NCBI GenBank assembly: GCA_005878515.1
Contig: VBLZ01000097.1
Span: forward strand, 7,634-71,633
Length of the DNA: 64,000 bases
Reading direction: 5' to 3'
Source: Methanobacteriota archaeon
Lineage (GTDB): Archaea > Thermoplasmatota > Thermoplasmata > RBG-16-68-12
Below are positions 6,922 through 59,520 of this stretch, in pieces. Position 1 is the stretch's first letter. Each line of letters opens with the position of its first letter. A model generated the notes under the pieces. That model did not search any database. It was not told the DNA's origin and was given only the letters and a program-made list of their open reading frames with translations. Made by a program: the position numbers and the translations under genes.

Positions 6922-7407
6922 ATGAATCTTTGGGAGGGAGCCGCGGACGAGGTCGCCTCGCTTTTCCGAGAAGAACGGATATCCGAGGAGGGCCTTGGTG
7001 GCGATGTGCTTCATGTGACGGCCACGGGCCTGATCGCCCACGACGGGCGCGTCCTCCTGGGGAAGCGGACGAGCACGGTTCGATTCGCGGGCATGTGGGA
7101 CGCCTTCGGCGGACATCTGGTCCCCTGCGAGGAACCCTCGGCCGCTCTGGTCCGCGAGCTTCAGGAAGAGTTGGGCATCACGGCGCTCCGGCCCCGGTTC
7201 CTCGGGATCTATGAGGACATCGATCCGACGTCCAAGGATCTCTTCCGTCACTACCTGTTCTTCGTCACCCGCTGGAGTGGGGATCCGAAAATCACGAACG
7301 AGGAGCACTCCGAGGTCCGTTGGTTCACCCCCGAAGAAGCGGAACAACTGAATCTCGCGCCGAGCCTCAAGGACGCCATTCGGCGCATCCTCCCAAAGAA
7401 ACCTTAA
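6922..7407 (+). CDS. NUDIX hydrolase
   Basis: A perfect Nudix box is present: GGHLVPCEEPSAALVRELQEELGI (GX5EX7REUXEEXGU). Confidence 0.9.
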   Translation: MNLWEGAADEVASLFREERISEEGLGGDVLHVTATGLIAHDGRVLLGKRTSTVRFAGMWDAFGGHLVPCEEPSAALVRELQEELGITALRPRFLGIYEDIDPTSKDLFRHYLFFVTRWSGDPKITNEEHSEVRWFTPEEAEQLNLAPSLKDAIRRILPKKP

Positions 7408-7438: not shown

Positions 7439-7858
7439 ATGGTCGACGAGAAGCAGATTAAGAAAATCCTGAGCGACATCCGGACGATTGCCGTCGTCGG
7501 CTGTTCCAAGGATCCCGCGAAGGACGCGCACCGCGTCCCGAAGTACATGCAGATGAATGGCTACCGGATCATCCCGGTGAATCCGACCGCGGCCGAGATC
7601 CTCGGTGAGAAGGCCTATCCGTCCCTGGATGCCGTCCCGATTCCGTTCGACGCCGTCGACATCTTCCGCCCCTCGGCGGACGTGCCGCCGATCGTGGACC
7701 AGGCCGTCAAGACCCCGGCGAAGGTCATCTGGCTCCAGCTCGGGATTCGCAACGAGGACGCCGCACGGAAGGCGCAGGCCGCGGGCAAGATCGTGATTCA
7801 GGACCGCTGCATGATGCGCGACCACGCGCGGCTATTCGGCAAGACGATCCTCGAATGA
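7439..7858 (+). CDS. CoA-binding domain protein (YccU/YneT-like)
   Basis: A 139-aa protein with IRTIAVVGCSKDPAKDAHRVPKYMQMNGYRIIPVNP, the succinyl-CoA-ligase-like CoA-binding fold. Confidence 0.8.
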   Translation: MVDEKQIKKILSDIRTIAVVGCSKDPAKDAHRVPKYMQMNGYRIIPVNPTAAEILGEKAYPSLDAVPIPFDAVDIFRPSADVPPIVDQAVKTPAKVIWLQLGIRNEDAARKAQAAGKIVIQDRCMMRDHARLFGKTILE

Positions 7859-16546: not shown

Positions 16547-17096
16547 TTACGGTTCCTCGTGATTCTCGCGGGTCCCGTACGGGGTCGAGTACTTGTGCGT
16601 CTCCCGGATCCGTTCGACGCCGTCGATCTCCTTGACATACTCGGCGACCACGGCCGGGACGAGGGATTCCCAGTCGCCTCCTTTCAACATTCGCTGGCGG
16701 ACGACGGTCCCGGAGAGCCGCTCGCGGTCCAACAGGGGGGGCGAGAGTACCTTGAGGCCGTGTTCCCGGAACAAGCGCACTACGAGATCCGAATTCGTGT
16801 AGACGCTGTCAAAGCGGGGCACGAGCGAGGTCACGTGGCTCACCCACACACTGTGGACGTGGGTGTCCGGGATCGGCACGATGTGATAGTTGTGGATCCC
16901 CTCCGCGTCGAGGGCCCGTTTGATCATCTCATATCGCTCGCCGGCGGTGAACGGATTCTCCCCGGTGTGGCTGTACTGGGCCGATCCGATCCCCACGATG
17001 ATCTCGTCGTTCGACTCGAGGATCCGCTTCACGGTCGCGAGGTGACCCCGATGGAACGGCTGGAACCGACCGATGAAGAATGCGCGCCCGCTCACT
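16547..17096 (-). CDS. nadM: Nicotinamide-nucleotide adenylyltransferase (archaeal NMNAT)
   Basis: VSGRAFFIGRFQPFHRGHL carries the archaeal NMNAT HXGH-type motif. The GTG start at 17096 was chosen. Confidence 0.9.
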
Positions 17097-17247
17097 CGTC
17101 GTCCTCTCCGAGGAAGTGGTCGATGTACGGGCACTCGATCGTCAAGAACATGCGGCAATGGACGCACATACCGTCGTCGTCCGCAGGTGCGAGGGCGGGG
17201 CTGGATTCATAACAGGGCATCGGTTCGGAGAACTCGGAGGGATCCAT
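17092..17247 (-). CDS. Small Cys-rich protein (possible zinc-binding)
   Basis: MDPSEFSEPMPCYESSPALAPADDDGMCVHCRMFLTIECPYIDHFLGEDDE (about 51 aa) sits exactly in the gap between the lon stop and the nadM start, with a 4-nt overlap onto nadM. Confidence 0.3.
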   Translation of the reverse strand: MDPSEFSEPMPCYESSPALAPADDDGMCVHCRMFLTIECPYIDHFLGEDDE

Positions 17248-19453: not shown

Positions 19454-19987
19454 TCACGCTGCGCGCTTCGCAATCATCTGCGCGAGCTTCGCGAACGCGA
19501 CCTCGACGTTCTCGCCGGTCTTCGCGGACGTGAACAAGAACGGGGCCTCGTGCGCCTCCGCCGCGCTCTGCACGTCGGCCTTCGTAATCGCCATCTGGTT
19601 CTTCAGATCCGCCTTGTTCGCCAGGAATTCGATCGGGACGTTCCCGGTGACCTTTATCACGGCGGCGACCCAATCCTCGAGGTCATCGAGCGTCTCCTTC
19701 CGCGTCACATCGCACACCGCGAGGACGCCCTGGGCCCCGTGGAAGTACGCTTCTTTGAGCAATTCGCGGAAGCCTTTCTCGCCCATGATATCCCAGATCG
19801 TCATGTCGACGTCCATGCCGCCGTTCGCGCCGTCGACCTTGATCTCTTTCTTCGAGACCTTCGCGCCGAGCGTGGAGATGTATCGGTCGTCGAACTGGTC
19901 CTGGATGAACCTCCGGATCAGGCACGTCTTGCCGACTGCGCCCTCTCCGACGAGGCAGACCTTGACTTTCATCTTTTGGCGGTCCAT
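19454..19987 (-). CDS. Ras/Rab-like small GTPase (paralog 1)
   Basis: G1 motif GEGAVGKT, switch-I Thr (STLGAK), G3 WDIMGEKG, G4 NKAD and G5 SAK are all present. The protein is 177 aa. Confidence 0.9.
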   Translation of the reverse strand: MDRQKMKVKVCLVGEGAVGKTCLIRRFIQDQFDDRYISTLGAKVSKKEIKVDGANGGMDVDMTIWDIMGEKGFRELLKEAYFHGAQGVLAVCDVTRKETLDDLEDWVAAVIKVTGNVPIEFLANKADLKNQMAITKADVQSAAEAHEAPFLFTSAKTGENVEVAFAKLAQMIAKRAA

Positions 19988-20027
19988 CAGAATCCCTAGA
20001 GCCGGTGCGTCGCTCGCACACGTCTCA

Positions 20028-20038
20028 GGTTATAAAGG
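20028..20038 (-). promoter_or_regulatory. TATA-like element upstream of GTPase paralog 1
   Basis: The plus-strand sequence ggttataaagg (minus strand cctttataacc) lies about 45 nt upstream of the ATG at 19987. Confidence 0.35.
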
Positions 20039-20102
20039 CGTTGCCCATCGGTTATCTATCGAGATAATGGCGGGGGCTCGGAGGGCTTGCGCCTCGATGG
20101 CG

Positions 20103-20642
20103 TCACTCGTTTCCGCGGTTCCCGATCGCATCGGCGAGGGCGCGGAACGCCTCGGCCACGCCGGCCCCGGTCTTCGCCGACGCGAGGAACTGAGGTGCGC
20201 TGTGGATCGACCCCATCCGGCCGAGTTCTTCCTGGCTCACGACGAGCCGCTCGGTCAGGTCCATCTTGTTCCCGAGGAACACCATCGGGACGTTGCCGAC
20301 CTGCTTTCGGATCATCTGGACCCAGTTGTTGAGATCGTAAAACGTATCCTTCCGCGTGAGGTCGCAGACCGCGATCACGCCTTGGGAGCCTTCGAAGTAC
20401 GCGTCGCGGAGTAAGGCCCGGAATCCCTTTTCGCCCATGATGTCCCAGACCATCATGTCGAGCGTCGCGGGGGCGCCCTTCCAAACGACATCGACCGACT
20501 TCTTCGTGACCTTCGTGCCGACCGTGGCGATGTACCGGTCGTCGAACTGGTCTTGAACGAACCGCTTGATGAGAGAGGTCTTGCCGACCGCGACATCCCC
20601 GACGAGGCAGACCTTGGCCTTGAGATGCTTCTGGCCAGCCAT
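20103..20642 (-). CDS. Ras/Rab-like small GTPase (paralog 2)
   Basis: Motifs GDVAVGKT / WDIMGEKG / GNKMD / SAK are present. The start was chosen at MAGQKHLKAKVCLVGD by alignment with the two other paralogs. Confidence 0.9.
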   Translation of the reverse strand: MAGQKHLKAKVCLVGDVAVGKTSLIKRFVQDQFDDRYIATVGTKVTKKSVDVVWKGAPATLDMMVWDIMGEKGFRALLRDAYFEGSQGVIAVCDLTRKDTFYDLNNWVQMIRKQVGNVPMVFLGNKMDLTERLVVSQEELGRMGSIHSAPQFLASAKTGAGVAEAFRALADAIGNRGNE

Positions 20643-20722
20643 CGTGGACGTCGCCATCACGGGCCACCCATCGAGCGCGGTCTTATGTACCGTGCAGACG
20701 CGAGTATCGCCCCTGATAATTC

Positions 20723-21286
20723 TTACTCTTCAGGGAGCACTTTTCGCGCGTAACGCTCCTTCGCGACCCGCTCGGCAAGGGACTGGAACGCATTCTCGAC
20801 GTTGACGCCGGCCTTCGCCGACGTGAAGTGGAACGGACTGTCGTAGGCGCGGGCGGCCTGGACCATGTCGTCCTCGCTGATCTGAATCTGGTCCTTCAAG
20901 TCGATCTTGTTGCCGAGGAACTCGATCGGAATCTTGCCCGTGACACTGTAGACGCCCTCGATCCAGTCGTCGAGGTCTTCGAGGGTCTTCTTCCGGGTGA
21001 CGTCGCAGACCGCAAGGATCCCGCGGGCGCCGTAGAAGTACGCCTCCTTGAGCAGCTCGCGGAAGCCTTTCTGGCCCATGATATCCCAGATTGTCATGTC
21101 GATCTTCAATTCGCCCGAGCCGTCCGGCGACGAGGAGGTGAGCTCCTTCTTTGAGACCTTCGTGCCGAGCGTCTGGATGTACTTATCATCGAAGTTCTCC
21201 AGCACGAATCGGCGGATGAGAGAGGTCTTGCCAACTGCAGCCTCACCAACGAGGCAAACTTTCACTTTCATCCGCTTGACTTCCAT
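20723..21286 (-). CDS. Ras/Rab-like small GTPase (paralog 3)
   Basis: Motifs GEAAVGKT / WDIMGQKG / GNKID / SAK are present. The protein is 187 aa. Confidence 0.9.
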   Translation of the reverse strand: MEVKRMKVKVCLVGEAAVGKTSLIRRFVLENFDDKYIQTLGTKVSKKELTSSSPDGSGELKIDMTIWDIMGQKGFRELLKEAYFYGARGILAVCDVTRKKTLEDLDDWIEGVYSVTGKIPIEFLGNKIDLKDQIQISEDDMVQAARAYDSPFHFTSAKAGVNVENAFQSLAERVAKERYARKVLPEE

Positions 21287-21460
21287 GAAGAACCGCCCAG
21301 CGACGTGGCATAGCCTGCGAAGCCCGCTTAAAAGTTATGGGAGTGTTATCACCGACGATACATCGGAACCCGCTCGCCATGAGTGATGCGTGTCCGTGCG
21401 CCTCGCGCGTGGCGAAAGGTTTTGTATTTTCCGCGTCATGTCGTCGACGAAGGCGCGACG

Positions 21461-42377: not shown

Positions 42378-43007
42378 GTGAAGGTCGTTGTCTTCGGCGC
42401 GACGGGGGAGACCGGCCGTCTCCTCACGGAACGAACCCTGCGGGCGGGCCACACGGTCACCGCCTTCGTGCGCGATCCGGCCCGGATGCTCATCGTGCAC
42501 GAACGGTTGCGCGTGATCCGAGGCGACGTCCTCGACCCTCCTTCGGTTGAGCGAGTGATTCCAGGCCACGATGCGGTCCTCTCGGCTCTGGGGAGCACGG
42601 CCCGCAATCCGGCACCGGTCCTTTCCGAGGGCGTTCAGCACATCCTCGATGCGATGGAACGGTCCCGCGTCCGGCGGATCGTGGCCCTCTCGGCGGCCGG
42701 CGCGCTGGGGGAGTCGGCCGGATTCGCAATCGGGAATGCGGGCCTGCGAATCTTCCGAATGTGGCTGCCGCAGGTCTACCGAGAGCATCGCAAGATGCTC
42801 GACGAACTTCGGCGGCGCGAACTCGAATGGATCGCGGTGCGCGCCGTCCTGTTGACGAACGGCGCAGCGAAGGGTCGCTACCGCATTGCGATCGAGGGAA
42901 TTCCGCGGTGGGGCTTTCGGATCTCTCGCGCCGATGTCGCCGACTTCATGATCCGCCAACTCACGACCGATGAGTTCGTCCGCAAGATGCCCGCGACGGC
43001 GTATTGA
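42378..43007 (+). CDS. NAD(P)-binding NmrA/SDR-like oxidoreductase (atypical SDR)
   Basis: VKVVVFGATGETGRLL is a Rossmann GXXGXXG motif. The protein is 209 aa and starts at GTG. Confidence 0.75.
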   Translation: MKVVVFGATGETGRLLTERTLRAGHTVTAFVRDPARMLIVHERLRVIRGDVLDPPSVERVIPGHDAVLSALGSTARNPAPVLSEGVQHILDAMERSRVRRIVALSAAGALGESAGFAIGNAGLRIFRMWLPQVYREHRKMLDELRRRELEWIAVRAVLLTNGAAKGRYRIAIEGIPRWGFRISRADVADFMIRQLTTDEFVRKMPATAY

Positions 43008-43143
43008 ATCCGTTAGGATTCGCCAGGTAGGTGCACGGGCACCAACGACCGCATGCTTTTATACGGCCACCCAGATGAGTCGACCGCTTCCCGAGGCGAT
43101 GAAGAAGCCTTGGGTGGCCCGAATCCCCGGGAGCGGGGCTGCG

Positions 43144-46100
43144 ATGATCAAGCAGGCGGAGAAGACGTATGCTCCACTTGAGGTGGAGCGACAGGTCCAG
43201 GAATTCTGGGACCGCGCGAAGGTCTACCGGAAGACCGTCGCCGCGCGGGAGAAAGGCGAGGATTTCTTTTTCGGCGACGGCCCGCCGTACACAACCGGAT
43301 CGATTCACCTCGGAAACGTCCTGAACAAGACGATCAAGGATCTCGTCGTCCGCTATCATCGGATGCGCGGCTACCACGTCCGGGACCAGCCGGGCTACGA
43401 CATGCACGGCCTCCCGATCGAGGTCCAGGTCGAGAAGACCCTCGGGATCACGAACAAGAAGGAGATCGAAGAGCTCGGCATCGAGAAGTTCGTGAACACC
43501 TGCCGGACGTTCGCGACGGACCTCCTGCAGACGATGACGAAACAGTTCCAGTCGCTCGGCATCTGGCTCGATTGGGACCGCCCGTACATGACGATCCGCA
43601 ACGAATTCATCGAGGCGGCGTGGTGGACGCTGAAACGCGCCCACGAACACGACTGGATCTACGAGGCGCTCCGGTCCATCCAGTGGTGTTCCCGATGCGA
43701 GACGGCCCTCGCGGACGCCGAAGTCGAGTACTCCGACGAAACGGATCCGTCGATTTACGTCAAGTTCCGCCTCGCCGGCAAGCCGGACGAATCCCTGCTG
43801 ATCTGGACCACGACCCCGTGGACCCTTCCCGCCAATCTCGCGATCGCGGCGCATCCCGATTTCCGGTACGCGAAGGTGAAAATTCCACATGGCAAGAAGC
43901 CCGAGTACGTCTGGCTCATGGAGAGCGCGGTGCCCGACGTCATGGCCCGCGGCGGGGTGACGAAATACTCCGTCGTCGAGACGAGGAAAGGGAGCGACCT
44001 CGTCGGGCTCGCATACCTCCACCCACTCCGGACGAAGCTCCCCTACCAGAAGTCAGCGAAGGGCGAGTGGGTCCACAAGCTCGTCTCCTCGGACACGGTC
44101 GCCGCCGAGTACACGGGGCTCGTCCATTCGGCCCCGGGGCACGGACCGGAGGACTTCGAGCTCGGTCAGAGGCTCGGCCTTCCCGCCTTTTCGCCGGTCG
44201 ACGCGGGAGGCCGTTTCACCGCGGACGCCGGCGCCTACGCGGGCCAGAAGGTGAGGGAGGCGAATCCGGGGATCATCGCGGACCTGCGGGCGGCCCGCGC
44301 TCTCTTCGCGGACGAGACGATCCTCCATGCATACGGCCATTGTTGGCGATGCAAGACCCCGATCTTGTTCCGCGCGACGGTCCAATGGTTCCTCAAGGTG
44401 ACGGACTTCAAACCGAAGATGGTCGAGGAGGTCGGGCGGGTCAGATGGTTCCCGGACTGGGCCGGATCGGCGCGCCAACTCGATTGGACGAGCAACCTGC
44501 GGGACTGGTGCATCTCCCGGCAGCGGTACTGGGGCATCCCCCTCCCGATCTGGAGGTGCGCGAAGTGCAATCACTGGACGGTCGTCGGATCGGCCGAATC
44601 CCTTCGAGGTGCGAGCGGCTACAAGGAAGGAATGGACCTTCACCGGCCCGGCATCGACCGGATCGCGCTCCCATGCGAGAAGTGCGACGGCGAGATGCGG
44701 CGGGTCCCCGACACGGTCGACGTGTGGTTCGACAGCGGCGTCTCGAGCTGGGCGAGCCTCGGCTACCCGGCTCGCGACGACGAGTTCCGCCGCTGGTGGC
44801 CTCAGGACTGGATCGTCGAAGGGCCGGACCAGACGCGGGGCTGGTTCAACTCCCAACTCGCGGCAGGGGTCGTGGCGTTCGACCGGGCTCCGTACGATCA
44901 GGTGCTGATGCACGGTTGGGTGAACGGTCCGGACGGACGGCAAATGCACAAGTCCCTCGGGAACGTCATCGAGCCCGAGACGGTCGTCGACAAGTTCGGG
45001 GTCGATCCGCTCCGATTCTATGTGATCGCCGTGAACGCGCCTTGGGACGACATCACGTTCCAGGAGGAGGGCGTCCGGAACGCGCAGCGGACCTTGAACA
45101 TCCTGTGGAACGTCCTGCGGTTCGCGACGACCTACATGGTCTTGGACCGGTTCGATCCGTTCGCGGCGGACCTCTCCTCGACCGAAGGCCACCTCCGGCC
45201 CGAGGACCGTTGGCTCCTCTCGCGGCTCGAGGGTCTGAAGAAGACCGTGGACCTCGAGATGCGTTCATACAACCTGCACCGCGCGGCCCGCGCGGTCGAG
45301 GCGTTCATCCTCGATGACCTCTCGCGGTGGTACGTGAAGCTGGTCCGCGGGCGGACCTGGACGGAGACCGACAACGGGGACAAGCTCGCCGCGTACCGCG
45401 TGCTCTTCGAAGCGCTGAGTACCCTTGCGATCCTCCTCGCCCCCGTCGCGCCCCACATCGCAGAGGCCATGTATCAGCGCCTCGATGGACGGAAGCTCAG
45501 CGTGCACATGCTCGATTGGCCCGACGTCCGAGCGCAATGGCTTCGGCCCGAGCTTGAGCGGTCTATGTCGATCGTGCAAGAAGAGGTTGAAGTCGTCTCG
45601 AATCAACGACAGAAGGGAGGGCGGAAGCTCCGTTGGCCGCTGAAGCTGATCGCGGTCCGCAGCGCCACACCGGAAGCCGCGGAGGCGTTTGCCGCACTGC
45701 GGAGTATCTTCCTGGACCAGGTGAATGCGAAGGAACTCGTGATCTTGGAACCCGCCGACGAGTTTCCGGGCACCGTCGTCGTCGCGAAGCCCGACGCCGC
45801 GGCGATCGGCAAGGCGTACAAAGCTCTGGCACCCAAGATTGTGAAACTGCTCGGGACCCGGGCCCCGGGCGAGCTGCAAAAGGCGTTCGAGCGCGGTTCG
45901 TACACGCTCCATGCGGACGGGCAGACGTTCGAGATCGAACCGACGATGGTGCGCTTCGAGAAAGCGCTCCCCCCCGAGGTCGTCCGGGTGGAGACGCCTC
46001 ATGGTGAGATCTACCTCGACCTTCGCGTGACGCCGGAGCTCCAAGCCGAAGCGTACGCTCGCGAGATCGTCCGCCGAATCCAGCAGATGCGGAAAGACCT

Positions 46101-47307
46101 CGACCTGGACATCGACGACTTCATCGCCACGGTCATCAAGACGAACAAAGAATTCGCAGCGACCCTCGAAGCACAGCAGGCCTTCATCGCCCGCGAGACT
46201 CGATCTCGCAGCTTGACGTTCACCGACAAGGCCGTCGCCTCCGAACATGTCGTCGAATGGAAGGACGTCGACGGTCATGGCGTCACGATCGGGGTCACAC
46301 CGCTCCATCTCTCCGAATCGATTCGCGAATTCACCCGGATCCCCGGCCTCACGATGGCGAAGGCGATGGCCCTTTTCGACGCGGGCTACAAGAGCCTCGC
46401 GGCGCTTCGCTCCGCGACGAAACAGGAGTTGCTGGCCGTCGACGGCCTTGACGCAGGAGACGTCGACCGGATCACCGAATTCCTCGCCGTCCCAGAAAAG
46501 AAGGACGCCGTCTGCCCGACCTGCCAGGCGTCCGTCGCGGCCGACGCGCGGCGCTGTCCTCGATGTGGAGAGCCGATGGCGTTGGAGGCCACGCCCTGCC
46601 CCCGATGCAAGTCGGCTATTCCTCCCGGCGCGGACGCATGTCCTGTTTGCGGCTTCGCATTAATCGGCCAGGCCGCTCCAGGGACGCCCTCGCGGACGCC
46701 GTGCGTCGCGTGCGGAGAGCTGATTCTCGCGGGTTCTTCCGAGTGCCCCTCGTGCGGTGCGCCGCAGAAGCGACCGGTCCCGCTGGTTTCGAGTCCAACC
46801 GGTGAGGACGAGGCGCCGGCGCTGCTGAAAGACTCCTCCTCGTACCTCGTACGAGAGACCACGCCCGAGGAGGCGTATCGCCTATTCCTCATCGCACATA
46901 ACACGGGGAAGAAGGGCATGATCATCACGCGACTTTTCCCGCAGAAGGTCCGAGAGCGCTTCGGGCTGAAAGATCTGCCGATCGTCTGGTTGAGCAACGT
47001 GGGCAAGGAGGACTCGGTCCGACCGAAAGACCTCGAAAAGTTATCCTTGGCCGCGGAGCAATTCCTCTCCCGCGAGAAAGGCGTGGTCCTTCTCGACGCG
47101 ATCGAATATCTAGTGACGAACAATAATTTCCTGACGGTGCTGCGTCTTGTGCAATCGATTCGCGATCAGGTGGCCGTCAACAACGGGGTGCTGTTGCTTT
47201 CCGTCAACCCGTCGACCCTCGACGCCCACCAGATGACGCTCCTCGAACGCGAAGTGGATCAAGTGGTCAACGTGTCCGGCGGGCCGACGGGTTCCACTTC
47301 GGGATGA
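43144..47307 (+). CDS. ileS: Isoleucyl-tRNA synthetase fused to a roughly 330-aa C-terminal extension (HhH + multiple zinc ribbons + DUF835-like domain)
   Basis: The HIGH motif (GSIHLGNVLNK) and KMSKS motif (MHKSLGNV) define the archaeal-type IleRS body. The frame then continues without a stop through GLTMAKAMALFDAGYKSLAALRSATKQELLAVDGLD (helix-hairpin-helix-like), six CxxC pairs (CPTCQ…CPRCGE…CPRCKS…CPVCGF…CVACGE…CPSCGA) and a terminal domain …GMIITRLFP…VVLLDAIEYLVTNNNFLTVLRLVQSIRDQVA… that resembles DUF835. The start was chosen at MIKQAEKTYAPLEVERQVQEFWD. Confidence 0.85.
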   Translation: MIKQAEKTYAPLEVERQVQEFWDRAKVYRKTVAAREKGEDFFFGDGPPYTTGSIHLGNVLNKTIKDLVVRYHRMRGYHVRDQPGYDMHGLPIEVQVEKTLGITNKKEIEELGIEKFVNTCRTFATDLLQTMTKQFQSLGIWLDWDRPYMTIRNEFIEAAWWTLKRAHEHDWIYEALRSIQWCSRCETALADAEVEYSDETDPSIYVKFRLAGKPDESLLIWTTTPWTLPANLAIAAHPDFRYAKVKIPHGKKPEYVWLMESAVPDVMARGGVTKYSVVETRKGSDLVGLAYLHPLRTKLPYQKSAKGEWVHKLVSSDTVAAEYTGLVHSAPGHGPEDFELGQRLGLPAFSPVDAGGRFTADAGAYAGQKVREANPGIIADLRAARALFADETILHAYGHCWRCKTPILFRATVQWFLKVTDFKPKMVEEVGRVRWFPDWAGSARQLDWTSNLRDWCISRQRYWGIPLPIWRCAKCNHWTVVGSAESLRGASGYKEGMDLHRPGIDRIALPCEKCDGEMRRVPDTVDVWFDSGVSSWASLGYPARDDEFRRWWPQDWIVEGPDQTRGWFNSQLAAGVVAFDRAPYDQVLMHGWVNGPDGRQMHKSLGNVIEPETVVDKFGVDPLRFYVIAVNAPWDDITFQEEGVRNAQRTLNILWNVLRFATTYMVLDRFDPFAADLSSTEGHLRPEDRWLLSRLEGLKKTVDLEMRSYNLHRAARAVEAFILDDLSRWYVKLVRGRTWTETDNGDKLAAYRVLFEALSTLAILLAPVAPHIAEAMYQRLDGRKLSVHMLDWPDVRAQWLRPELERSMSIVQEEVEVVSNQRQKGGRKLRWPLKLIAVRSATPEAAEAFAALRSIFLDQVNAKELVILEPADEFPGTVVVAKPDAAAIGKAYKALAPKIVKLLGTRAPGELQKAFERGSYTLHADGQTFEIEPTMVRFEKALPPEVVRVETPHGEIYLDLRVTPELQAEAYAREIVRRIQQMRKDLDLDIDDFIATVIKTNKEFAATLEAQQAFIARETRSRSLTFTDKAVASEHVVEWKDVDGHGVTIGVTPLHLSESIREFTRIPGLTMAKAMALFDAGYKSLAALRSATKQELLAVDGLDAGDVDRITEFLAVPEKKDAVCPTCQASVAADARRCPRCGEPMALEATPCPRCKSAIPPGADACPVCGFALIGQAAPGTPSRTPCVACGELILAGSSECPSCGAPQKRPVPLVSSPTGEDEAPALLKDSSSYLVRETTPEEAYRLFLIAHNTGKKGMIITRLFPQKVRERFGLKDLPIVWLSNVGKEDSVRPKDLEKLSLAAEQFLSREKGVVLLDAIEYLVTNNNFLTVLRLVQSIRDQVAVNNGVLLLSVNPSTLDAHQMTLLEREVDQVVNVSGGPTGSTSG

Positions 47308-47316
47308 ACACGGATC

Positions 47317-48108
47317 TCAGGCTGAGGGCTTGAGGACCGCGGCCACGACGTTGACGAGGCGCGGGACGGTCTCGAAGCGGTCCAACTCCTCGGGACGAAC
47401 CCATCGTTGCTCGACGTTTTCCCAATCGAGGCGGACCCGGCGATTCGGAGTGTCGAAGAGGAATGGATGGACGACGTAGATTGTCGTGCCGTCTCGAGCG
47501 AGGACCGGATCTCCCGCTCCACGGAATGTGATTGCGCGGATCCCGGTCTCTTCCCGAACCTCCACGATGGCCCGGTGTTTCGGATCTTCGCGGCCCTCGA
47601 TGTGGCCCGAGATTGCGGACCACTTTCCTCGGAAGGTGCCCACCTTCTCACTCCGACGGACGATGAGGATGCGGCCCCGGTTCCGGAGGATCGCCGTCAC
47701 CACGCGCTTTCCCCGGATGTCGGGCAGCTCGACCGTTCCCCGACCCCCGTCGACGACCATCCGATCTCCCGTGCGCAGGCCTCCGACGTCGACGCGATCC
47801 ACCATCGGGATGCCCGCGAGCGTCGCCCCGACCGCGACGACGGCATCCGCGCGTCGGTTCACGATCGCCGCGGGACCGTGGCCCCGCTTCCCCAGGCCAT
47901 ACAGCACATACGAGCCCACCGTACTCCCTTTGCCAGTCGGGAATGCGAAGATTCGGTCGTCCAAGCGTTCGCCCAAGATGCCGGTCGAGCCATTGAGAAT
48001 CGATCCGGTAGCCGGATCTACCCCGCCCACGAAGGAGAAGGGAGTCGAGGAGACGAGTGCCTTGCCCGACGCCCGGCCGGCAACGATCCCCCGGGCGCGA
48101 ATCCTCAT
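47317..48108 (-). CDS. AcnX-type phosphomevalonate dehydratase small subunit (DUF126) fused to a C-terminal Nudix hydrolase domain
   Basis: The N-terminal 130 aa are MRIRARGIVAGRASGKALVSSTPFSFVGGVDPATGSI…GKGSTVGSYVLYGL…, the DUF126 pattern. The C-terminal roughly 135 aa contain the Nudix box GHIEGREDPKHRAIVEVREETGI. The ATG overlaps the stop of the upstream large subunit (ATGA). Confidence 0.75.
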   Translation of the reverse strand: MRIRARGIVAGRASGKALVSSTPFSFVGGVDPATGSILNGSTGILGERLDDRIFAFPTGKGSTVGSYVLYGLGKRGHGPAAIVNRRADAVVAVGATLAGIPMVDRVDVGGLRTGDRMVVDGGRGTVELPDIRGKRVVTAILRNRGRILIVRRSEKVGTFRGKWSAISGHIEGREDPKHRAIVEVREETGIRAITFRGAGDPVLARDGTTIYVVHPFLFDTPNRRVRLDWENVEQRWVRPEELDRFETVPRLVNVVAAVLKPSA

Positions 48109-49268
48109 GTGTAGCGCTCCAGGAGCGTCTTCAGTTCCTCGAAGACGACCTTCTGCCGGGATAGGCTTGGCAAGTAGTACGCCCCTTTCCCCGAGGGCGT
48201 CGCGACCGTGCCGAATCGGTGCTCGAGCAACGTGACCTCGAGGCATGTGTCCGCGAGGACGCGACCGCCGTGGCGCTCGATGGTCCCGACGGCATCCGGA
48301 TTCGCATCGCGCACGACCCGACTCGTGAAGACCCAGACCGGGATCCGAGGCGGCGTGCGGTCGACGAGCCGCGCGACTTCTCGCAGTTCGTCCGCAGAGA
48401 GTTGCGGGGACCCGAGGCCGATCATGTCGGCCTCCGTCCCGTCGGTGTGCGCCCGTTTCGCTGCAGCCAAATCTCGATCGGTAATCGCAATTGACTTCAG
48501 GCCCTTCACATGCGCGCGCCGGGACTCGGGCGTTACGCCTTCTAGGTGGAACATCGAACAGGCGCCGGAGGAGGCGAGGGCCGCGCCGAGCCATTTGAGG
48601 TCTCCCTCGGTCCCGCGGAAGCCGCGGAAGAATGGGAGGCCGTCGTCCACTCGCTCTCCGGCGACGAGTCCGATCAACGAGTAGTCGATGCCCCGCGGCT
48701 TCACGCCGACCTTCACGATCGCCGTGGGTTCTCGACCCTCGTCCGTGTGAAGTCCGTGTTCCGGCGTCGCTCCGACGATGGCGGCGGCGAGCGCCGCGGG
48801 ACCGCCCTCCCGGTTCGTACGAGCACCTAGGACCGAGTTCGCGAAACACACGGCACTCGATTCCGCCCAAGCGACGTGTTCACCGAAGGTCGGTCGGACG
48901 CCGATCAGATACGGAGTGCACGAGAACGAGCGACGGACTCCCATCGCCTCGTAGGCGCTCGCAATGCGTCCTTGCTTCTCCGCGAACGATGGCGGGACGC
49001 CGAGCGCCTGCCACTGCGCGAGATCCGTCCCGAGCGGATTGACGGTCGTCGGCACCGAGACCCGCGCGTCCCGCGCGAAATCCTCCAGGAACTCGAGACC
49101 CGGATCCCCGATCAACTTGTACGAGACGCCGGACACGTGCGCGGAGGTGATCGGGATGAGACGCGGTGCGTCGGCGAGACGGCCCACCGCAAGCAAGATT
49201 TGCATCGCCTTGCGCTGGGACTCCGTGCCATCGTCCAGCAGATGCATCTGCGTCCGTGTGAGGCGCAT
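48105..49268 (-). CDS. AcnX-type (DUF521) dehydratase large subunit, putative mevalonate 5-phosphate dehydratase
   Basis: A 387-aa protein with the aconitase-X family pattern, including …SFSCTPYLIG… It is coupled to the DUF126 gene downstream. Confidence 0.8.
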   Translation of the reverse strand: MRLTRTQMHLLDDGTESQRKAMQILLAVGRLADAPRLIPITSAHVSGVSYKLIGDPGLEFLEDFARDARVSVPTTVNPLGTDLAQWQALGVPPSFAEKQGRIASAYEAMGVRRSFSCTPYLIGVRPTFGEHVAWAESSAVCFANSVLGARTNREGGPAALAAAIVGATPEHGLHTDEGREPTAIVKVGVKPRGIDYSLIGLVAGERVDDGLPFFRGFRGTEGDLKWLGAALASSGACSMFHLEGVTPESRRAHVKGLKSIAITDRDLAAAKRAHTDGTEADMIGLGSPQLSADELREVARLVDRTPPRIPVWVFTSRVVRDANPDAVGTIERHGGRVLADTCLEVTLLEHRFGTVATPSGKGAYYLPSLSRQKVVFEELKTLLERYT

Positions 49269-49703
49269 TCACGGCGCCTCCGCGAGGATCGCGTGGGCGA
49301 CCCGCCGGGCCTCCGCCGGCTTCGCGGGGTAGGCGATCAGCTTCAACCGGATGTCGATCGGATCCGAATCGCCCGCGAGCTCAAGACGCTCCCGGAATGC
49401 GGCCTGCTTGTCGAAGCGAAAGTGGAGGACGCCATCCTCGTCGAGGCGCGCTTCGATGTCGCGTGCGATCGCCGAGGGGACGCCGGCCGCGGCCCAGTGC
49501 GACCAGACCGCCCGGATGGCGGGTCGCTTCTCGACGCGGCGAGTGAGTCGGACCAGGGGATTCCCGAAGTGGCCCTCCAGCTGCTCCCGAGAGGCTACGC
49601 CTTCGGGGACCGCGAGCGCGAGGGCGGTGGCCACCCTTTCCTCCTCTTCCGTCGCGTGACAATAGGTGCGAGCTTCGATCCGACGGATCGGGAGGTCAGC
49701 CAT
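49269..49703 (-). CDS. UPF0201-family (COG1931-like) predicted RNA-binding protein
   Basis: MADLPIRRIEARTYCHATEEEERVATAL… matches the N-terminal pattern of this archaea-specific family. The protein is 144 aa. Confidence 0.5.
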   Translation of the reverse strand: MADLPIRRIEARTYCHATEEEERVATALALAVPEGVASREQLEGHFGNPLVRLTRRVEKRPAIRAVWSHWAAAGVPSAIARDIEARLDEDGVLHFRFDKQAAFRERLELAGDSDPIDIRLKLIAYPAKPAEARRVAHAILAEAP

Positions 49704-50232
49704 GGAGCCGCTCCAGGGCCACGCGCGCCTGCCTGCGGAATTCGTCCAACGTCGATTCGTTGACGAGCATGATGTCGGCCGTTGCGATGACCTCGCCGAG
49801 CCCCCAGCTCAGTTCGCGGAGGTCTCGCGCTCGAACTGCCTCGATGGTGATGGCGTCGTCAAGGCGCTTTCGTAGCAACATCCGCTCGTGCCGGGTCTTC
49901 GGGGATGCGTGGACCGCGAGGACCACGAGCGCCTCTCCGAAGGCCTTGCGAAACACATCGAGCTCCGCCCCTCCGCGCAGTCCGTCCACGACGACTCGGT
50001 CTCCGTGGATTCGCGGCAGCGTCCGTTCGGCCCAGATTCCGAATCCGTGGGCTTCTCGCTCGGCAGTGGCCATCCCGCCCACCGCGCCATCGGTAATCGG
50101 AAGGCCCCGACGTTGGGCTTCTTCCCGAACTACATCGCCCATTCGGACGATTGAGAAGCCGAGATTCTTCGCCACGGCGAGGACCTCCTCCTTGCCGCAT
50201 CCGGGCATTCCCGTGACGCAGACGACTCGCAC
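49696..50232 (-). CDS. Adenylate/cytidylate-kinase-like P-loop nucleotide kinase (UPF0200-type)
   Basis: VRVVCVTGMPGCGKEEVLAVAKNLGF… carries the P-loop. The GTG start at 50232 was chosen. The remainder of the 582-aa ORF-track entry is antisense to pdxS and is discarded. Confidence 0.65.
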   Translation of the reverse strand: MRVVCVTGMPGCGKEEVLAVAKNLGFSIVRMGDVVREEAQRRGLPITDGAVGGMATAEREAHGFGIWAERTLPRIHGDRVVVDGLRGGAELDVFRKAFGEALVVLAVHASPKTRHERMLLRKRLDDAITIEAVRARDLRELSWGLGEVIATADIMLVNESTLDEFRRQARVALERLHG

Positions 50233-56328: not shown

Positions 56329-57057
56329 CTACTCGCGGTAGTCCTCAAGTCGGAGCTGCGGCGGATCGGCCTTCCGTTGGTCGGGCCTTCGAATCCGGCG
56401 TTGCATCTCGTTCTGCACGCGATTGAACGTGTCGATCTCGATGAGTGGCTCATGCTTTCCGCGCTTGATGCCCCCGTTCAGACGGGCGAGGCCGCAGTAG
56501 ACCGGGTTGCTCAAGATGTTCGCGATCGTCTGGCTCGCCCAAGCCCGGCCGGTCTTCGTCCGATACCCGTCCCGGTTGAGCTCCTGGCAGATCTTGGCGA
56601 TCCCCTTGCCCTCGAGGTAGCGTCGGAAGATCAGGGAGACCACACGGGCCTCCTCCTTCTTCAGCTGGAGGATGCCGTCCACGTAGTCGTACCCGTATGG
56701 GCTCGCGTAGGTGAGGAATGCGTTCGCCTTCTTGACGGCGTTGTTCAGGGCTTCGACGCTTTGCAATCCTCGGGCCCGCCGCAGCACCTCGCGCTCGTTC
56801 AGATCCCGCTCCACGCAGAGCCTCCGGAGCGCCTCGTCCTCGGAATCCGAGGCGTAGTGCTGGAGCATCTCGCGGGTCGATCCGAATCGCATGTAGACTT
56901 CCCAGAAGAGGAGGGCGTCGCCTGGAGATCCGTCCACGCAATGCTTGCAAAGGAGGACCTTCTCCCTCCGGACGGTCGGATCCGCGCGGGGGTTCGCGTC
57001 GACCTCGTGGCTCACGAGGTTCTTCGTGCTCCAACACCGCTGACATCGGCCGTCCAT
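56329..57057 (-). CDS. Recombinase-domain protein lacking the serine-recombinase catalytic domain; N-terminal zinc ribbon
   Basis: N-terminal CQRCWS…CKHC, then …ASPYGYDYVDGILQLKKEEARVVSLIFRRYLEGKGIAKICQELNRDGYRTKTGRAWASQTIANILSNPVYCGL…, the large-serine-recombinase 'Recombinase' domain. There is no resolvase N-terminal domain. Confidence 0.8.
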   Translation of the reverse strand: MDGRCQRCWSTKNLVSHEVDANPRADPTVRREKVLLCKHCVDGSPGDALLFWEVYMRFGSTREMLQHYASDSEDEALRRLCVERDLNEREVLRRARGLQSVEALNNAVKKANAFLTYASPYGYDYVDGILQLKKEEARVVSLIFRRYLEGKGIAKICQELNRDGYRTKTGRAWASQTIANILSNPVYCGLARLNGGIKRGKHEPLIEIDTFNRVQNEMQRRIRRPDQRKADPPQLRLEDYRE

Positions 57058-57060
57058 CCG

Positions 57061-57888
57061 TCACGCCTCCAGGAGGATCGGCGGGGCGTGCGCGGTGGTC
57101 AGGAGCGCGCGCGACCGCAGCCGCTCCTGCGCCTCGTTGAACGTTTCGACCGACACGAGGGGATCGTGATCGGCCTTCCGGACGATCCCATCCCACCGGA
57201 GGAAGCCGGCGTAGACCGGATTGTGGAGGATGCGGAAGACCTTGATCGGTGTCCACGACGTGCCGAGTTTCGTCCGCTGGCCGTGCGCGTTCAGTTCAAC
57301 GGCGGTCTCTTCGAGCGTCCGGCCACTCAGGCACAGGTCGAACATCTGTCGCACGACCTCGGCCTCAGCCTCGATCGGGACGAGCCGGCCTTCCGTGACG
57401 TCGTAACCGAGCGGCGGATGGAATCCCAGAATCCCGGGTCCGACCCGCGCCTTCTGGGTCATCCCCATCTTCACCCGCTCGCCGATCTGCTCCGACTCGA
57501 GCTGCGCAATCCGTTGAATGATGTCCATGACGAATCGGCCCATCGCGGTCGAGGTGTCCAGGGACTCCGATGCTGAAACGAAGTCCTTCCCCCATTCCTG
57601 AAGGTTCTCCATCATCTCCATGAAGTTCCGGGAGTTCCGGTGGATCCGGTCCATCTTGATGACCAGGAGGGCGTCCCATTCGTCCCGCTCCGACATCATC
57701 TTCTGGTACGCCGGACGGCGAATGTTTCGGCCGGAGTGACCTTCGTCGACGTACCGGGCCGCGACAGACCAGTCACGGGCGAGGCAATATGCCTCGAGGC
57801 GTTCGCGCTGCGCCTCCAGGGAGAAGCCTTCCTTGGCTTGGTCCTCCGTCGACACTCTAGTGTAGACCGCGACGCGGACCGTGCGCAC
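57061..57888 (-). CDS. Serine recombinase (resolvase/invertase catalytic domain + recombinase domain), short form
   Basis: The catalytic N-terminus VAVYTRVSTEDQ, with the Ser nucleophile, is followed by …HPPLGYDVTEGRLVPIEAEAEVVRQMFDL…ILHNPVYAGF… The protein is 275 aa with a GTG start. It is 3 nt upstream of the second recombinase-domain gene. Confidence 0.85.
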   Translation of the reverse strand: MRTVRVAVYTRVSTEDQAKEGFSLEAQRERLEAYCLARDWSVAARYVDEGHSGRNIRRPAYQKMMSERDEWDALLVIKMDRIHRNSRNFMEMMENLQEWGKDFVSASESLDTSTAMGRFVMDIIQRIAQLESEQIGERVKMGMTQKARVGPGILGFHPPLGYDVTEGRLVPIEAEAEVVRQMFDLCLSGRTLEETAVELNAHGQRTKLGTSWTPIKVFRILHNPVYAGFLRWDGIVRKADHDPLVSVETFNEAQERLRSRALLTTAHAPPILLEA

Positions 57889-58128
57889 CCATCCCGACCC
57901 GCCGAAGGACGGTCAAACTAAAAAAGACTGCCGGTCGGACGAAAGTCTGACGCACTGATGTACGATAAACACCTCTCAAAGAAGGCAAGAGCCCGTCCGG
58001 CGAGGCCTAACTTTTATCTGTTTTGATGGATATTTATGGAATTCGATTTGGACTTCCATGCTATTCCGTCACACGGAAAACTGGAGAAACATTGGTTCGT
58101 AGAAAGGTATTGCTAGTAGCGTATTCGG

Positions 58129-58194: not shown

Positions 58195-59520
58195 TTAGGA
58201 TTTTCGCGACCGGAGATCCGACAAGACCTCTTTCGCTCGGTCCATCCTTACTTTCCGCTCCTTCACCAGGATTTCGGCCACGCGGTCGACTTCCTCGCCG
58301 ACGGCTCCTACCGTCGCGGCTACGTTCCGCGCATGGAGCGACATGTGCCCGCGTTGAATGCCCTCTGTCGCCAGAGCACGTAGGGCGGCAAAGTTTTGCG
58401 CCAAGCCCACGGCGGCAATCACTTCCGCGAGTTCCTGCGCGGTCTTGACGCCGAGGAGGTGGACATTCGCCTTCGCGGTGGGATGGACTGCCGTCGCTCC
58501 GCCGACCAGTCCGACGGCCATGGGCAGCTCGATCGTCCCGACGAGGTCTCCATTCGCATCCTTCTCCCACGCCGTCAGGGACCGATAGCCCCCGGACTTC
58601 CATGCGGCATATGCGTGGGCGCCGGCCTCGATCGCCCGCCAGTCGTTCCCAGTCGCAACGACGACCGCGTCGATCCCGTTCATGATGCCCTTGTTATGCG
58701 TCGCACAGCGGAACGGATCCGCATCCGCGAACGCGTAGGCCTCGAGGATTCCTTCGACGACGTCCTCGCCAGGGATGTCCTCGGTCCGGATGGCGTCCTT
58801 CGCGAACACCGCCCGGGCGCGCGCGAGTCGCCGAACCGCGAGATTCGAAATGATCCGCAGGTAGACGCGACCGCCCGTCCACTTCTCGATGTGCGGGGCG
58901 ATCGCCTCCGCCATCGTGTTCACCGCGTTGGCGCCCATCGCGTCGCGGCAGTCGACGACGAGGTGGGTGACGACCATGTGGCCCCGTTTCGTGTCCACGA
59001 CTCGGACCTCGACGTCCTTGGCTCCGCCGCCGACCTTCACGAGCATCGGGTCCTTCTCGTTCGCGATCGAGAGGATTTCGTCCTTGTGGTGGAGGATCGT
59101 CATCCGCGCGCCGTGCGGATCCGAGACCCCGACGAGCTGAATCTGACCGATCATGATCGGACCGGACGTGCTCGCCGAGAAGCCACCTCGTTCCCGGGCC
59201 ATCCGGGCCGCGTTGGAGGCCGCGGCGACGACGCTCGGCTCCTCGATGGCCATCGGGACCAGATAGTCCCGCCCGTTCACCTGAAAATTCACCGCGATCC
59301 CGAGGGGCACCGGCATCGCTCCGACCACGTTTTCGATCATCCGGTCGACTTGGTCGAATTTGAGCGCACCCGTGTTCTGGATCGTCTCGACCTCTGCGTC
59401 GGACAGCTCGCCGAACGACCGGATGACTTGCCAGCGGTCCTGCGGGCTCTTCTTGTAGAAGCCCGACACCTCGGAACTCTTCACGTCGGCACCGAGCGTC
59501 GGAGAAGACTGTCCCGCCAT
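58195..59520 (-). CDS. hmgA: Hydroxymethylglutaryl-CoA reductase, class II
   Basis: The class II pattern …VPMAIEEPSVVAAASNAARMA…DAMGANAVNTMAE…GNDWRAIEAGAHAYAA… is present. The start was chosen at MAGQSSPTL (59520). Confidence 0.9.
   Translation of the reverse strand: MAGQSSPTLGADVKSSEVSGFYKKSPQDRWQVIRSFGELSDAEVETIQNTGALKFDQVDRMIENVVGAMPVPLGIAVNFQVNGRDYLVPMAIEEPSVVAAASNAARMARERGGFSASTSGPIMIGQIQLVGVSDPHGARMTILHHKDEILSIANEKDPMLVKVGGGAKDVEVRVVDTKRGHMVVTHLVVDCRDAMGANAVNTMAEAIAPHIEKWTGGRVYLRIISNLAVRRLARARAVFAKDAIRTEDIPGEDVVEGILEAYAFADADPFRCATHNKGIMNGIDAVVVATGNDWRAIEAGAHAYAAWKSGGYRSLTAWEKDANGDLVGTIELPMAVGLVGGATAVHPTAKANVHLLGVKTAQELAEVIAAVGLAQNFAALRALATEGIQRGHMSLHARNVAATVGAVGEEVDRVAEILVKERKVRMDRAKEVLSDLRSRKS

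Follow-up and report, generated by a model that had tools for sequence, protein, structure and literature searches.

Phosphomevalonate dehydratase (PMDh), which converts mevalonate 5-phosphate into trans-anhydromevalonate 5-phosphate, is the signature enzyme of the pathway by which archaea make the precursors of their membrane lipids and, to our knowledge, has been studied only as a plain two-subunit form. The enzymes of Aeropyrum pernix (APE_2087.1/2089) and Thermococcus kodakarensis (TK1249/TK1248; structures 7CNR/7CNS) are both encoded by tandem, coupled genes for a large and a small subunit of the aconitase X (AcnX) type. Work on the T. kodakarensis enzyme (TkAcnX) with bound mevalonate 5-phosphate identified Ser62 of the small subunit as the catalytic base and Thr63 as the carboxylate binder, and revealed that the swivel domain moves about 26 degrees upon substrate binding (PMC8184944). 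In the present report we analyse a stretch of 64,000 nucleotides, referred to below as the window, from a Methanobacteriota archaeon of the Thermoplasmata lineage RBG-16-68-12 (contig VBLZ01000097.1, positions 7,634 to 71,633), in which the AcnX small subunit continues without interruption into a Nudix hydrolase domain. The pair encoded here has the same tandem coupled subunits, fold and Ser-Thr loop as the characterised PMDh enzymes, the same binders for the carboxylate and hydroxyl of mevalonate 5-phosphate and two of the three cysteines of the cluster, but differs by the extra 133-aa Nudix domain, by a serine at site 1 and a glutamate at site C of the iron-sulfur region, by a leucine in place of Asn53 of the large subunit, and by not being embedded in an operon with the decarboxylase UbiD, isopentenyl phosphate kinase (IPK) and type 2 isopentenyl diphosphate isomerase (IDI2).

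Both genes lie on the minus strand. The large subunit (domains 1-3, 387 aa; PF04412, E 1.4e-130) occupies positions 48105..49268, and the fusion gene runs from 48108 to 47317 and, by sequence reading, has 263 codons uninterrupted by a stop, followed by TGA. Residues 1-130 of the fusion protein (47719..48108) form the AcnX small subunit, that is, the swivel domain 4 (PF01989, aa 24-103, E 1.7e-26), and residues 131-263 together with the stop codon at 47317-47319 (47317..47718) form the Nudix hydrolase domain (PF00293, aa 136-252, E 8e-13). The TGA of the large subunit (48107-48105) shares bases with the ATG of the fusion gene (48108-48106) in an ATGA overlap, ACATGAGG, and the large and small subunit genes are translationally coupled. 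A preliminary description of the locus, made from the letters alone, had reported this overlap between a DUF521 and a DUF126 gene and the continuation of the DUF126 frame into a complete Nudix domain, and both points were borne out by the family matches and the reading of the sequence. A longer open reading frame of 517 aa (47317..48870) was rejected as a gene, being a spurious 5′ extension inside the large-subunit gene.

The identity of the pair as a phosphomevalonate dehydratase of AcnX type IIb, also proposed in that description, was supported by structural comparison. The best matches in the PDB are the two T. kodakarensis subunits, TK1249 for the large one (7cnr_A, E 5e-87) and TK1248 for the small-subunit half (7cnr_B, E 1.6e-32), and a Foldseek superposition of the swivel half on 7cnr_B gave a template modelling (TM) score of 0.93 and an r.m.s. 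deviation of 1.1 Å, whereas the match to the bacterial type-I AcnX, a hydroxyproline dehydratase, is much weaker (E 1.7e-58 for the large and 5e-13 for the small subunit). When residue roles are transferred from those published for TkAcnX with its bound substrate (PMC8184944), the alignment to 7cnr_B shows that the small subunit keeps S62, T63 and V64 and has a non-aromatic residue at position 27 (V27); the Ser62-Thr63 codons are found at 47920..47925 on the minus strand, within a GKGSTVGSY motif. The alignment to 7cnr_A shows in turn that the large subunit keeps G48-V49-S50, N79, E129, S130, S131, K361 and Y365 (T. kodakarensis numbering). On the other hand, the hydroxyproline-specific residues of the bacterial enzyme (Asp203, Trp35, Thr72) are not present in the window proteins. 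Since most of the substrate-binding residues are kept, the hydroxyproline-specific ones are gone and TK1249/TK1248 are the best matches, the pair is assigned to AcnX type IIb and is predicted to be of the PMDh type. One departure among the substrate contacts is Asn53 of the T. kodakarensis large subunit, a phosphate contact, which is leucine in the window; within the fused clade this position is occupied by T, L, M or I, and outside it by N, S or T.

A second departure concerns the iron-sulfur cluster. In PMDh the [4Fe-4S] cluster is held by three cysteines, and the alanine mutant of each in A. pernix retains <4% activity (PMC10040528). Two of these ligands are kept in the window, at site A (C110 in T. 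kodakarensis, C117 in the window) and at site B (C342 in both), while site 1 (C283 in T. kodakarensis, C297 in A. pernix) is Ser287 according to the HMMER alignment to 7cnr_A (48408..48410, minus strand), so that two of the three cysteines typical of type IIb are present. A MAFFT column analysis of 66 large subunits from related loci restricts this serine to the lineage of the window (the window itself, L003-L007, L015 and L083-L086 among the loci numbered L in this work) and finds cysteine in all others, fused or unfused. The same analysis revealed a glutamate, Glu344 (site C; 48237..48239, minus strand, codons 342-344 being 48237-48245), two residues past the site-B Cys342 in all 11 sequences of the Ser287 type. 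Site C is the position of the third ligand, Cys510, in the bacterial type-I AcnX, which likewise has serine at site 1; the bacterial enzyme thus shares with the window both that serine and a ligand-capable residue two positions past the site-B cysteine, but it is a single polypeptide and its site C is cysteine and not glutamate. In addition, locus L011 carries both the site-1 cysteine and the site-C glutamate and is an apparent intermediate, and two cysteines, Cys141 and Cys237, were gained in most Ser-type sequences (L007 is without Cys237 and L015 without both). From these alignments the substitution is read as a probable swap of ligands to a Cys2-Glu set, or to two cysteines plus a new one, with Glu344, Cys141 and Cys237 as candidates. 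The Cys-to-Ser and Glu changes represent a natural experiment on the switching of Fe-S ligation in aconitase-X enzymes.

These same departures can be taken to mean that the AcnX pair of the window lineage is not a PMDh at all, but a dehydratase for some other hydroxy acid with the Nudix domain serving that other pathway, an explanation that we consider distinctly improbable. It would account for a serine in the place of a cysteine whose alanine mutant is nearly dead in A. pernix (PMC10040528), for the leucine at Asn53, and for the fact that neither the window nor the flanks of the fusion loci contain another lower-pathway gene; moreover, PMDh could be bypassed by the homologues of GHMP-type decarboxylases that the Methanomassiliicoccales have (PMC4153887 supplement). 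However, the remaining substrate-binding residues are those of PMDh and the residues specific for hydroxyproline dehydratase are absent, the gene is the syntenic orthologue of cysteine-containing versions in sister lineages, and a ligand swap appears the simpler reading because the site of Glu344 is a proven ligand site in type-I AcnX and because L011 looks like the intermediate.

The fusion is far from being a peculiarity of this contig. A search of 5.8 billion proteins returned 1093 matches, and the best 120 of these all carry both domains, with lengths of 238-423 aa (mostly 260-280), identities down to 62% and source names such as 'Thermoplasmata archaeon' and 'Euryarchaeota archaeon RBG_16_68_13'. 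When the representatives of clusters at 50% identity were searched exhaustively, full-length fusions were found in about 30 clusters, the most distant being 28% identical to the query. Related genomes, where the fusion was to be looked for, were scanned with a 9-sequence alignment as query against one genome per GTDB species, and this yielded 43 loci with a match spanning both domains, nearly all labelled as archaea of the Thermoplasmata lineage. The hosts comprise Methanomassiliicoccus, Methanomassiliicoccaceae, Methanomethylophilaceae, Ca. Saliniplasma and other metagenome-assembled genomes of Thermoplasmata or Methanobacteriota; one fusion contig bears the label of a bacterial bin (Acutalibacteraceae), probably through contamination. 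In other archaea and in some Anaerolineae the small subunit is a plain protein of 130 aa, and no Nudix homologue was found within 10 kb of its gene. The large subunit lies directly upstream in every fusion locus that includes upstream DNA, and the order of separate large and small subunit genes in tandem is kept in all related loci with such DNA. The fusion protein is the sole small subunit adjoining the large one and, because the large subunit is always directly upstream, it is read as the working small subunit and not as a paralogue.

Could the joined frame be an artefact, either a frameshift or misassembly merging two genes or a Nudix domain translated only from an internal start? A GTG-GTG pair (Val136-Val137) after a GGGGA stretch at the domain junction would be a possible internal start, but the same unbroken frame recurs in 43 species and in assemblies made independently by many studies, and the stand-alone fragments in the databases come mostly from contig ends, which makes this explanation very improbable. 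Ten residues distributed over both domains are invariant in 47 of 47 fusion genes (S62 and T63 of the swivel half, together with R152, G168, W163, E183, E187, R205, E230 and W236), E186 is kept in 46 of them and position 174 is E or D in 44. Both domains are under purifying selection, with pairwise ratios of nonsynonymous to synonymous substitution of 0.02-0.3 in both halves.

A view of the junction was provided by an AlphaFold2 model built on a 28-sequence alignment, with a mean predicted local distance difference test (pLDDT) score of 95.8, a predicted TM score (pTM) of 0.89 and a pLDDT of about 98 across the junction. In this model residues 131-259 adopt the alpha/beta/alpha Nudix fold (pLDDT 95-98), and the last strand of the swivel domain leads nearly straight into the first strand of the Nudix domain, with no flexible linker. 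Foldseek matched the two halves separately, the swivel domain to 7cnr_B and the Nudix domain to 3grn, NudI, YmfB and RppH, and retrieved no PDB entry with both domains. Altogether, the fusion is an old and selected two-domain architecture of the Methanomassiliicoccales and related Thermoplasmata, and one that is rigid as modelled. It is not new to the databases, where hundreds of public sequences exist and automatic annotations such as 'predicted aconitase with swiveling domain/8-oxo-dGTP pyrophosphatase' can already be found. As for the literature, full-text searches retrieved no paper in which Nudix is brought together with phosphomevalonate dehydratase, anhydromevalonate or AcnX, co-occurrence of DUF126 and Nudix was limited to one unrelated Arabidopsis paper, and two papers on the enzymology and structure of PMDh do not mention the fusion.

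Such a geometry brings up the idea that the Nudix domain is mainly regulatory or structural, binding an effector (a nucleotide or a diphosphate) that tunes the dehydratase or promoting oligomerisation, with hydrolysis being secondary. The missing linker and the high pTM suggest a fixed interface with the swivel domain, which is precisely the domain that must move; some divergent members keep the Nudix domain despite having lost glutamates of its box, and other Thermoplasmata keep a degenerate swivel domain alongside the Nudix one. Yet E183 and E187 are invariant and E186 nearly so, as expected for a working active site, and the degenerate boxes are few, so that we regard a mainly non-catalytic role as unlikely.

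The catalytic motif itself reads G168-HIEGR-E174-DPKHRAI-V182-E183-V-R-E186-E187-T-G189-I190 (aa 168-190, GHIEGREDPKHRAIVEVREETGI; 47539..47607, minus strand, by direct sequence reading). The consensus GX5EX7REUXEEXGU is matched at G168, E174, E183, E186, E187, G189 and I190, and the sole departure is the replacement of its arginine by Val182, at a position that is variable among the 47 homologues (K in 18, R in 16). The box had initially been described as being of the 'REVREETGI' type; the GX5E and REUXEE glutamates of that description stand, and its arginine has to be corrected to valine. The metal-binding glutamates of the Nudix domain are all kept.

The nearest characterised relatives of the domain in the PDB and by Foldseek are small MutT-like enzymes (3grn, NudI, YmfB), with Foldseek E-values of 1e-8 to 2e-10 for the Nudix half against 3grn, NudI, RppH and YmfB. 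The M. mazei protein 3GRN and the NudI (YfaO), NudJ (YmfB) and NudG enzymes of E. coli/Salmonella share with the fused domain the same fold of about 130 aa and a G-x-W...SG-x-x-E box, but they are only 20-30% identical to it and are not fused to an aconitase-family domain. The similarity to NudI at the sequence level is weak (E 5e-6, about 22% identity). A type 1 isopentenyl diphosphate isomerase (IDI), which also has the Nudix fold, was considered and rejected. Enzymes of this type have a catalytic cysteine immediately before the glycine of the box and a His/Glu metal site, and the fusion protein has Ser167 before G168, invariant in the nine sequences of the alignment, and zero cysteines; moreover, no IDI model or structure was matched at E <= 0.001 (NCBIfam) or 0.01 (PDB). 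With respect to coenzyme A (CoA) pyrophosphatases, the CoAse structure 1nqy is a weak match (E 4e-4), and the stretch upstream of the box bears only a loose resemblance to the NuCoA motif, whose second arginine is missing. Similarly, there is no Pro or Tyr at the distance past the box that is diagnostic of the ADP-ribose and ApnA subfamilies. A neighbour-joining tree of Nudix domains labelled by architecture was star-like and unresolved, and was not used as evidence.

More informative were the other architectures in which the same Nudix subfamily occurs, since close relatives of the domain (45-52% identity) were found in four of them: the AcnX small-subunit fusion, a protein of about 240 aa with a remnant of the swivel domain, a fusion to an IF-2B family domain, and a stand-alone form. 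The 240-aa proteins belong to Thermoplasmata, including Ca. Lutacidiplasmatales, and carry the same Nudix domain behind an N-terminal swivel remnant of 110 aa that was recognised by hhalign (98.7%, E 1.7e-16) and has lost the GGVDP loop and the GKGSTVGSY motif; about 150 database proteins are of this type (e.g., P0257, P0386, P0468 in our protein numbering). In the two loci examined (L089 10001-10744; L090 10001-10714) no large subunit adjoins the gene within 10 kb, and the remnant protein may be a relic of dehydratase loss. Its gene neighbours are a luciferase-like oxidoreductase and a gene of the metallo-beta-lactamase fold. A GHMP kinase gene near it in L090 was discarded as a mevalonate kinase, since, with SIS and CBS genes beside it, it resembles a sugar kinase. 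Because the Nudix domain was kept where the swivel domain decayed, its activity appears to be valued independently of the dehydratase.

In the third architecture, found in other archaea (P0305, P0320, P0340; about 450 aa), the Nudix domain is N-terminal and 45-50% identical to that of the AcnX fusion, and the IF-2B part has as best match the ribose-1,5-bisphosphate isomerase family TIGR00511, below its cut-off. A corresponding arrangement of separate genes occurs in two unrelated bacteria, a Desulfobacterales bacterium and a COQ7-carrying bacterium (L091 and L098), where a stand-alone Nudix gene of about 140 aa shares 4 nt with the start of a gene of the IF-2B family; the coordinates of these Nudix/IF-2B (e2b2-like) loci are L091 6001-7367, L098 3700-4997 and L087 2905-4254. 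The neighbourhoods of the stand-alone proteins P0160 and P0183 lead to this pairing, those of P0164 and P0149 were uninformative and showed no mevalonate-pathway operon, and P0169 has a polyprenyl synthase gene about 4.6 kb away with five unrelated genes in between. The Nudix/IF-2B fusions and pairs thus contain the same subfamily, likewise joined or coupled to an enzyme acting on phosphate monoesters, although the partner is of an isomerase family. A Nudix-mediated conversion of phosphoribosyl pyrophosphate (PRPP) into ribose-1,5-bisphosphate has been proposed to lie upstream of ribose-1,5-bisphosphate isomerase (bioRxiv 10.1101/2019.12.22.886556).

Taking all this into account, the best explanation overall, which we hold with moderate confidence, is that the protein combines a PMDh small subunit with an active Nudix enzyme for a small organic diphosphate. 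The Nudix domain would be an active pyrophosphohydrolase kept for its own activity, which would cleave such a diphosphate into a monophosphate and phosphate, and the leading candidate substrates in this context would be isopentenyl diphosphate (IPP) and dimethylallyl diphosphate (DMAPP), yielding isopentenyl phosphate (IP) and dimethylallyl phosphate (DMAP). Cleavage of IPP or DMAPP would oppose isopentenyl phosphate kinase and so set the balance between IP and IPP; alternatively, DMAP made by the Nudix domain would feed UbiX and the prenylated flavin mononucleotide (prenyl-FMN) cofactor. Isoprenoid diphosphates are known substrates of the Nudix family, plant NUDX1 being another such phosphatase. 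An organic diphosphate as substrate is favoured, at modest confidence, because phosphate monoesters are what the two recurrent partners (PMDh and the e2b2-like isomerases) act upon, because a Nudix step from PRPP to ribose-1,5-bisphosphate has already been proposed, and because E. coli NudB, NudF, NudI and NudJ turn DMAPP into DMAP, which UbiX uses to make the prenyl-FMN of UbiD enzymes (PMC12359138). The isoprenoid idea in particular, which the preliminary description had put forward as a built-in phosphatase or regulatory step and which is one option among several, stays alive because NudI and NudJ/YmfB, which dephosphorylate DMAPP in vitro (PMC12359138), are near structural relatives of the domain. 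The narrower proposal of a dedicated monophosphatase for prenyl diphosphates (DMAPP/IPP), serving as a source of DMAP or as a counterpart of IPK, next to a dehydratase that in the soil lineage of the window would work on a Cys2-Glu cluster, is a tentative one and rather unlikely as a whole.

A number of observations weigh against an isoprenoid diphosphatase coupled to PMDh. One canonical Fe-S cysteine is gone from the large subunit, and for this reason PMDh activity is something that we infer from the remaining residues. Within the Nudix half, a few of the 50%-cluster representatives (P0237, P0242, P0266, P0282) have a degenerate box, and the domain passes no NCBIfam equivalog cut-off, the best being NudI with 28 bits against the 95 needed. 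The small MutT-like enzymes mostly act on nucleoside and deoxynucleoside triphosphates ((d)NTPs), and we know of no sequence signature that defines isoprenoid-diphosphate hydrolysis in the Nudix family. Moreover, the closest homologues, at 45-52% identity, are found in bacteria of the methylerythritol phosphate (MEP) pathway and as stand-alone proteins without a mevalonate-pathway operon, and given its other architectures the subfamily is not isoprenoid-specific. Finally, UbiD, UbiX, IPK and IDI2 are found within 10 kb of none of the 43 fusion loci, and the tie to a UbiD-type decarboxylase is weakened by the cases in which the Nudix domain was kept with no large subunit next to it.

The main rival is a house-cleaning nucleotide pyrophosphatase outside isoprenoid synthesis that would convert (d)NTPs into (d)NMPs and pyrophosphate, or hydrolyse ADP-ribose, with a fusion of adjacent genes that was neutral or driven by expression and became fixed early in the clade. 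We consider it possible, if the less probable of the two, and rank it as nearly as likely as the favoured reading. The best sequence and structure matches are indeed MutT-like (3grn, NudI, a CTP pyrophosphohydrolase, RppH), the stand-alone homologues lie beside unrelated genes in both bacteria and archaea, the e2b2 partnership is compatible with catabolism of nucleotides or pentose bisphosphates, and the domain was kept on a decayed swivel that has no large-subunit gene next to it. Nevertheless, the fusion has persisted across lineages whose proteins share no more than 28-50% identity, the arrangement of its domains is predicted confidently to be rigid, and no re-splitting of the gene was seen inside the fused clade in 43 genomes. 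Characterised Nudix fusions usually act in the pathway of their partner, and this too counts against a mere house-cleaning role. The precedent is NadM-Nudix (NMN adenylyltransferase/ADP-ribose pyrophosphatase), in which a Nudix domain is fused to an enzyme of the pathway that it serves, although its partner is unrelated and its Nudix domain is of the ADP-ribose type; the NMN adenylyltransferase-like open reading frame of the window (16547-17206, recognised by eye) is without a Nudix domain. Furthermore, the window already has a second, stand-alone Nudix gene (6922..7407, plus strand; 161 aa) with a fully canonical box, GGHLVPCEEPSAALVRELQEELGI, a further point against this rival. This second protein is 29% identical to the fused domain and its gene lies just upstream of a CoA-binding-domain gene (7439-7858).

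The pathway context of the pair in the window is reduced to HMG-CoA reductase (HMGR). The gene (58195..59520, minus strand; 441 aa) is 8.9 kb from the AcnX pair on the same strand and is of class II, as stated in the preliminary description, which had placed it about 10 kb away; it scores 500 bits with TIGR00532, the model for the NAD/'degradative' type (cut-off 260), and only 56 bits with the class I model TIGR00533. That description had also found it noteworthy that AcnX genes coexist with a class II enzyme, a remark that does not hold: class II HMGR has long been known in Thermoplasmata and Archaeoglobi, four related genomes have a homologous gene (70-73% identity) upstream of their AcnX genes, where the 10-kb flank ends, and the combination is normal for the clade. 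Apart from HMGR and the AcnX pair, no mevalonate-pathway gene was found in the window, most open reading frames being inspected by eye, the unclear ones with Pfam, GHMP kinases with a motif expression, and E. coli UbiD and UbiX and Thermoplasmata IPK and IDI2 being used as tblastn queries. The remaining genes of the route are also missing from the 10-kb flanks of the fusion loci, but cultured Methanomassiliicoccales do have mevalonate kinase (MVK), IPK and IDI2 at other places in their genomes (PMC4153887). According to Borrel et al. (PMC4153887, Additional file 3), these organisms encode acetyl-CoA acetyltransferase (ACAT), HMG-CoA synthase (HMGS), HMGR, two MVK-like kinases and adjacent IPK-IDI2 genes, with no phosphomevalonate kinase (PMK), and the same supplement lists a GHMP-type decarboxylase homologue and does not report UbiD or UbiX. 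From that gene list, the lower pathway of the clade may be redundant or in transition. Unfused lineages, on the other hand, often have UbiD-AcnXL-AcnXS-IPK-IDI2 operons, sometimes with UbiX (loci of this kind include L047, L050, L052, L054, L056, L062, L068, L070 and L073), and in the unfused Thermoplasmata L056, L062 and L070 IPK-IDI2 follow directly after the small subunit.

In the clade of the window the AcnX pair is instead the 3′ end of a packed unit with the order P-loop kinase, PF01877, AcnX-L and AcnX-S-Nudix, divergent from pdxS. A gene for a PF01877 'RNA-binding' protein (49269..49703, minus strand; E 2e-26) has its stop abutting the start of the large subunit, with a spacing of 0 nt, and overlaps by 8 nt a small gene resembling P-loop nucleotide kinases (AAA_17/AAA_18; 49696..50232, minus strand), which was recognised by synteny and from the Pfam matches of its orthologues in L083 and L085, gave weak NCBIfam matches only, and is the first of this apparent four-gene operon. 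Besides the window clade, L010, L011, L013, L015, L018 and L040 have this unit, which is kept at identities as low as about 45%. A related arrangement is that of protein P0267 (250 aa), in which a PF01877-like domain (a weak match, E 0.002), represented by its C-terminal part, is joined directly to the Nudix domain; this architecture would result from loss of both AcnX genes in the order PF01877-AcnXL-AcnXS-Nudix. On the other side of the fusion gene, an isoleucyl-tRNA synthetase gene (42970-47307, plus strand) ends 9 nt from its convergent stop and codes for a protein extended at its C-terminus by about 400 aa, in which several cysteine pairs resemble zinc ribbons, the orthologues in L083 and L085 being annotated with HHH_5, DZR and DUF835 domains. 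Between the gene for the large subunit of replication factor C (RFC) and HMGR there is a gene for a serine recombinase (resolvase) and, after it, one with a recombinase domain (56329-57912, minus strand), and this pair is found at the same syntenic place in L083 and L085 and is therefore not a recent insertion. Elsewhere in the window, three tandem paralogous genes for Ras/Rab-like GTPases of about 190-205 aa each were recognised by eye at 19454-21334 on the minus strand.

An order-level branch of the archaea, including the cultured Methanomassiliicoccales of the human gut and the rumen, thus has a Nudix domain on the catalytic small subunit of its putative phosphomevalonate dehydratase. If the domain were a generic nucleotide cleaner, this would be an ordinary domain fusion of taxonomic interest only. 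If it acts on IPP or DMAPP, it would represent a built-in step of control or of cofactor supply, which would be useful for engineering the low-ATP archaeal pathway. In the case of a true prenyl-diphosphate monophosphatase, the small subunit would be bifunctional and would provide the as yet unassigned archaeal source of DMAP for UbiX and prenyl-FMN.

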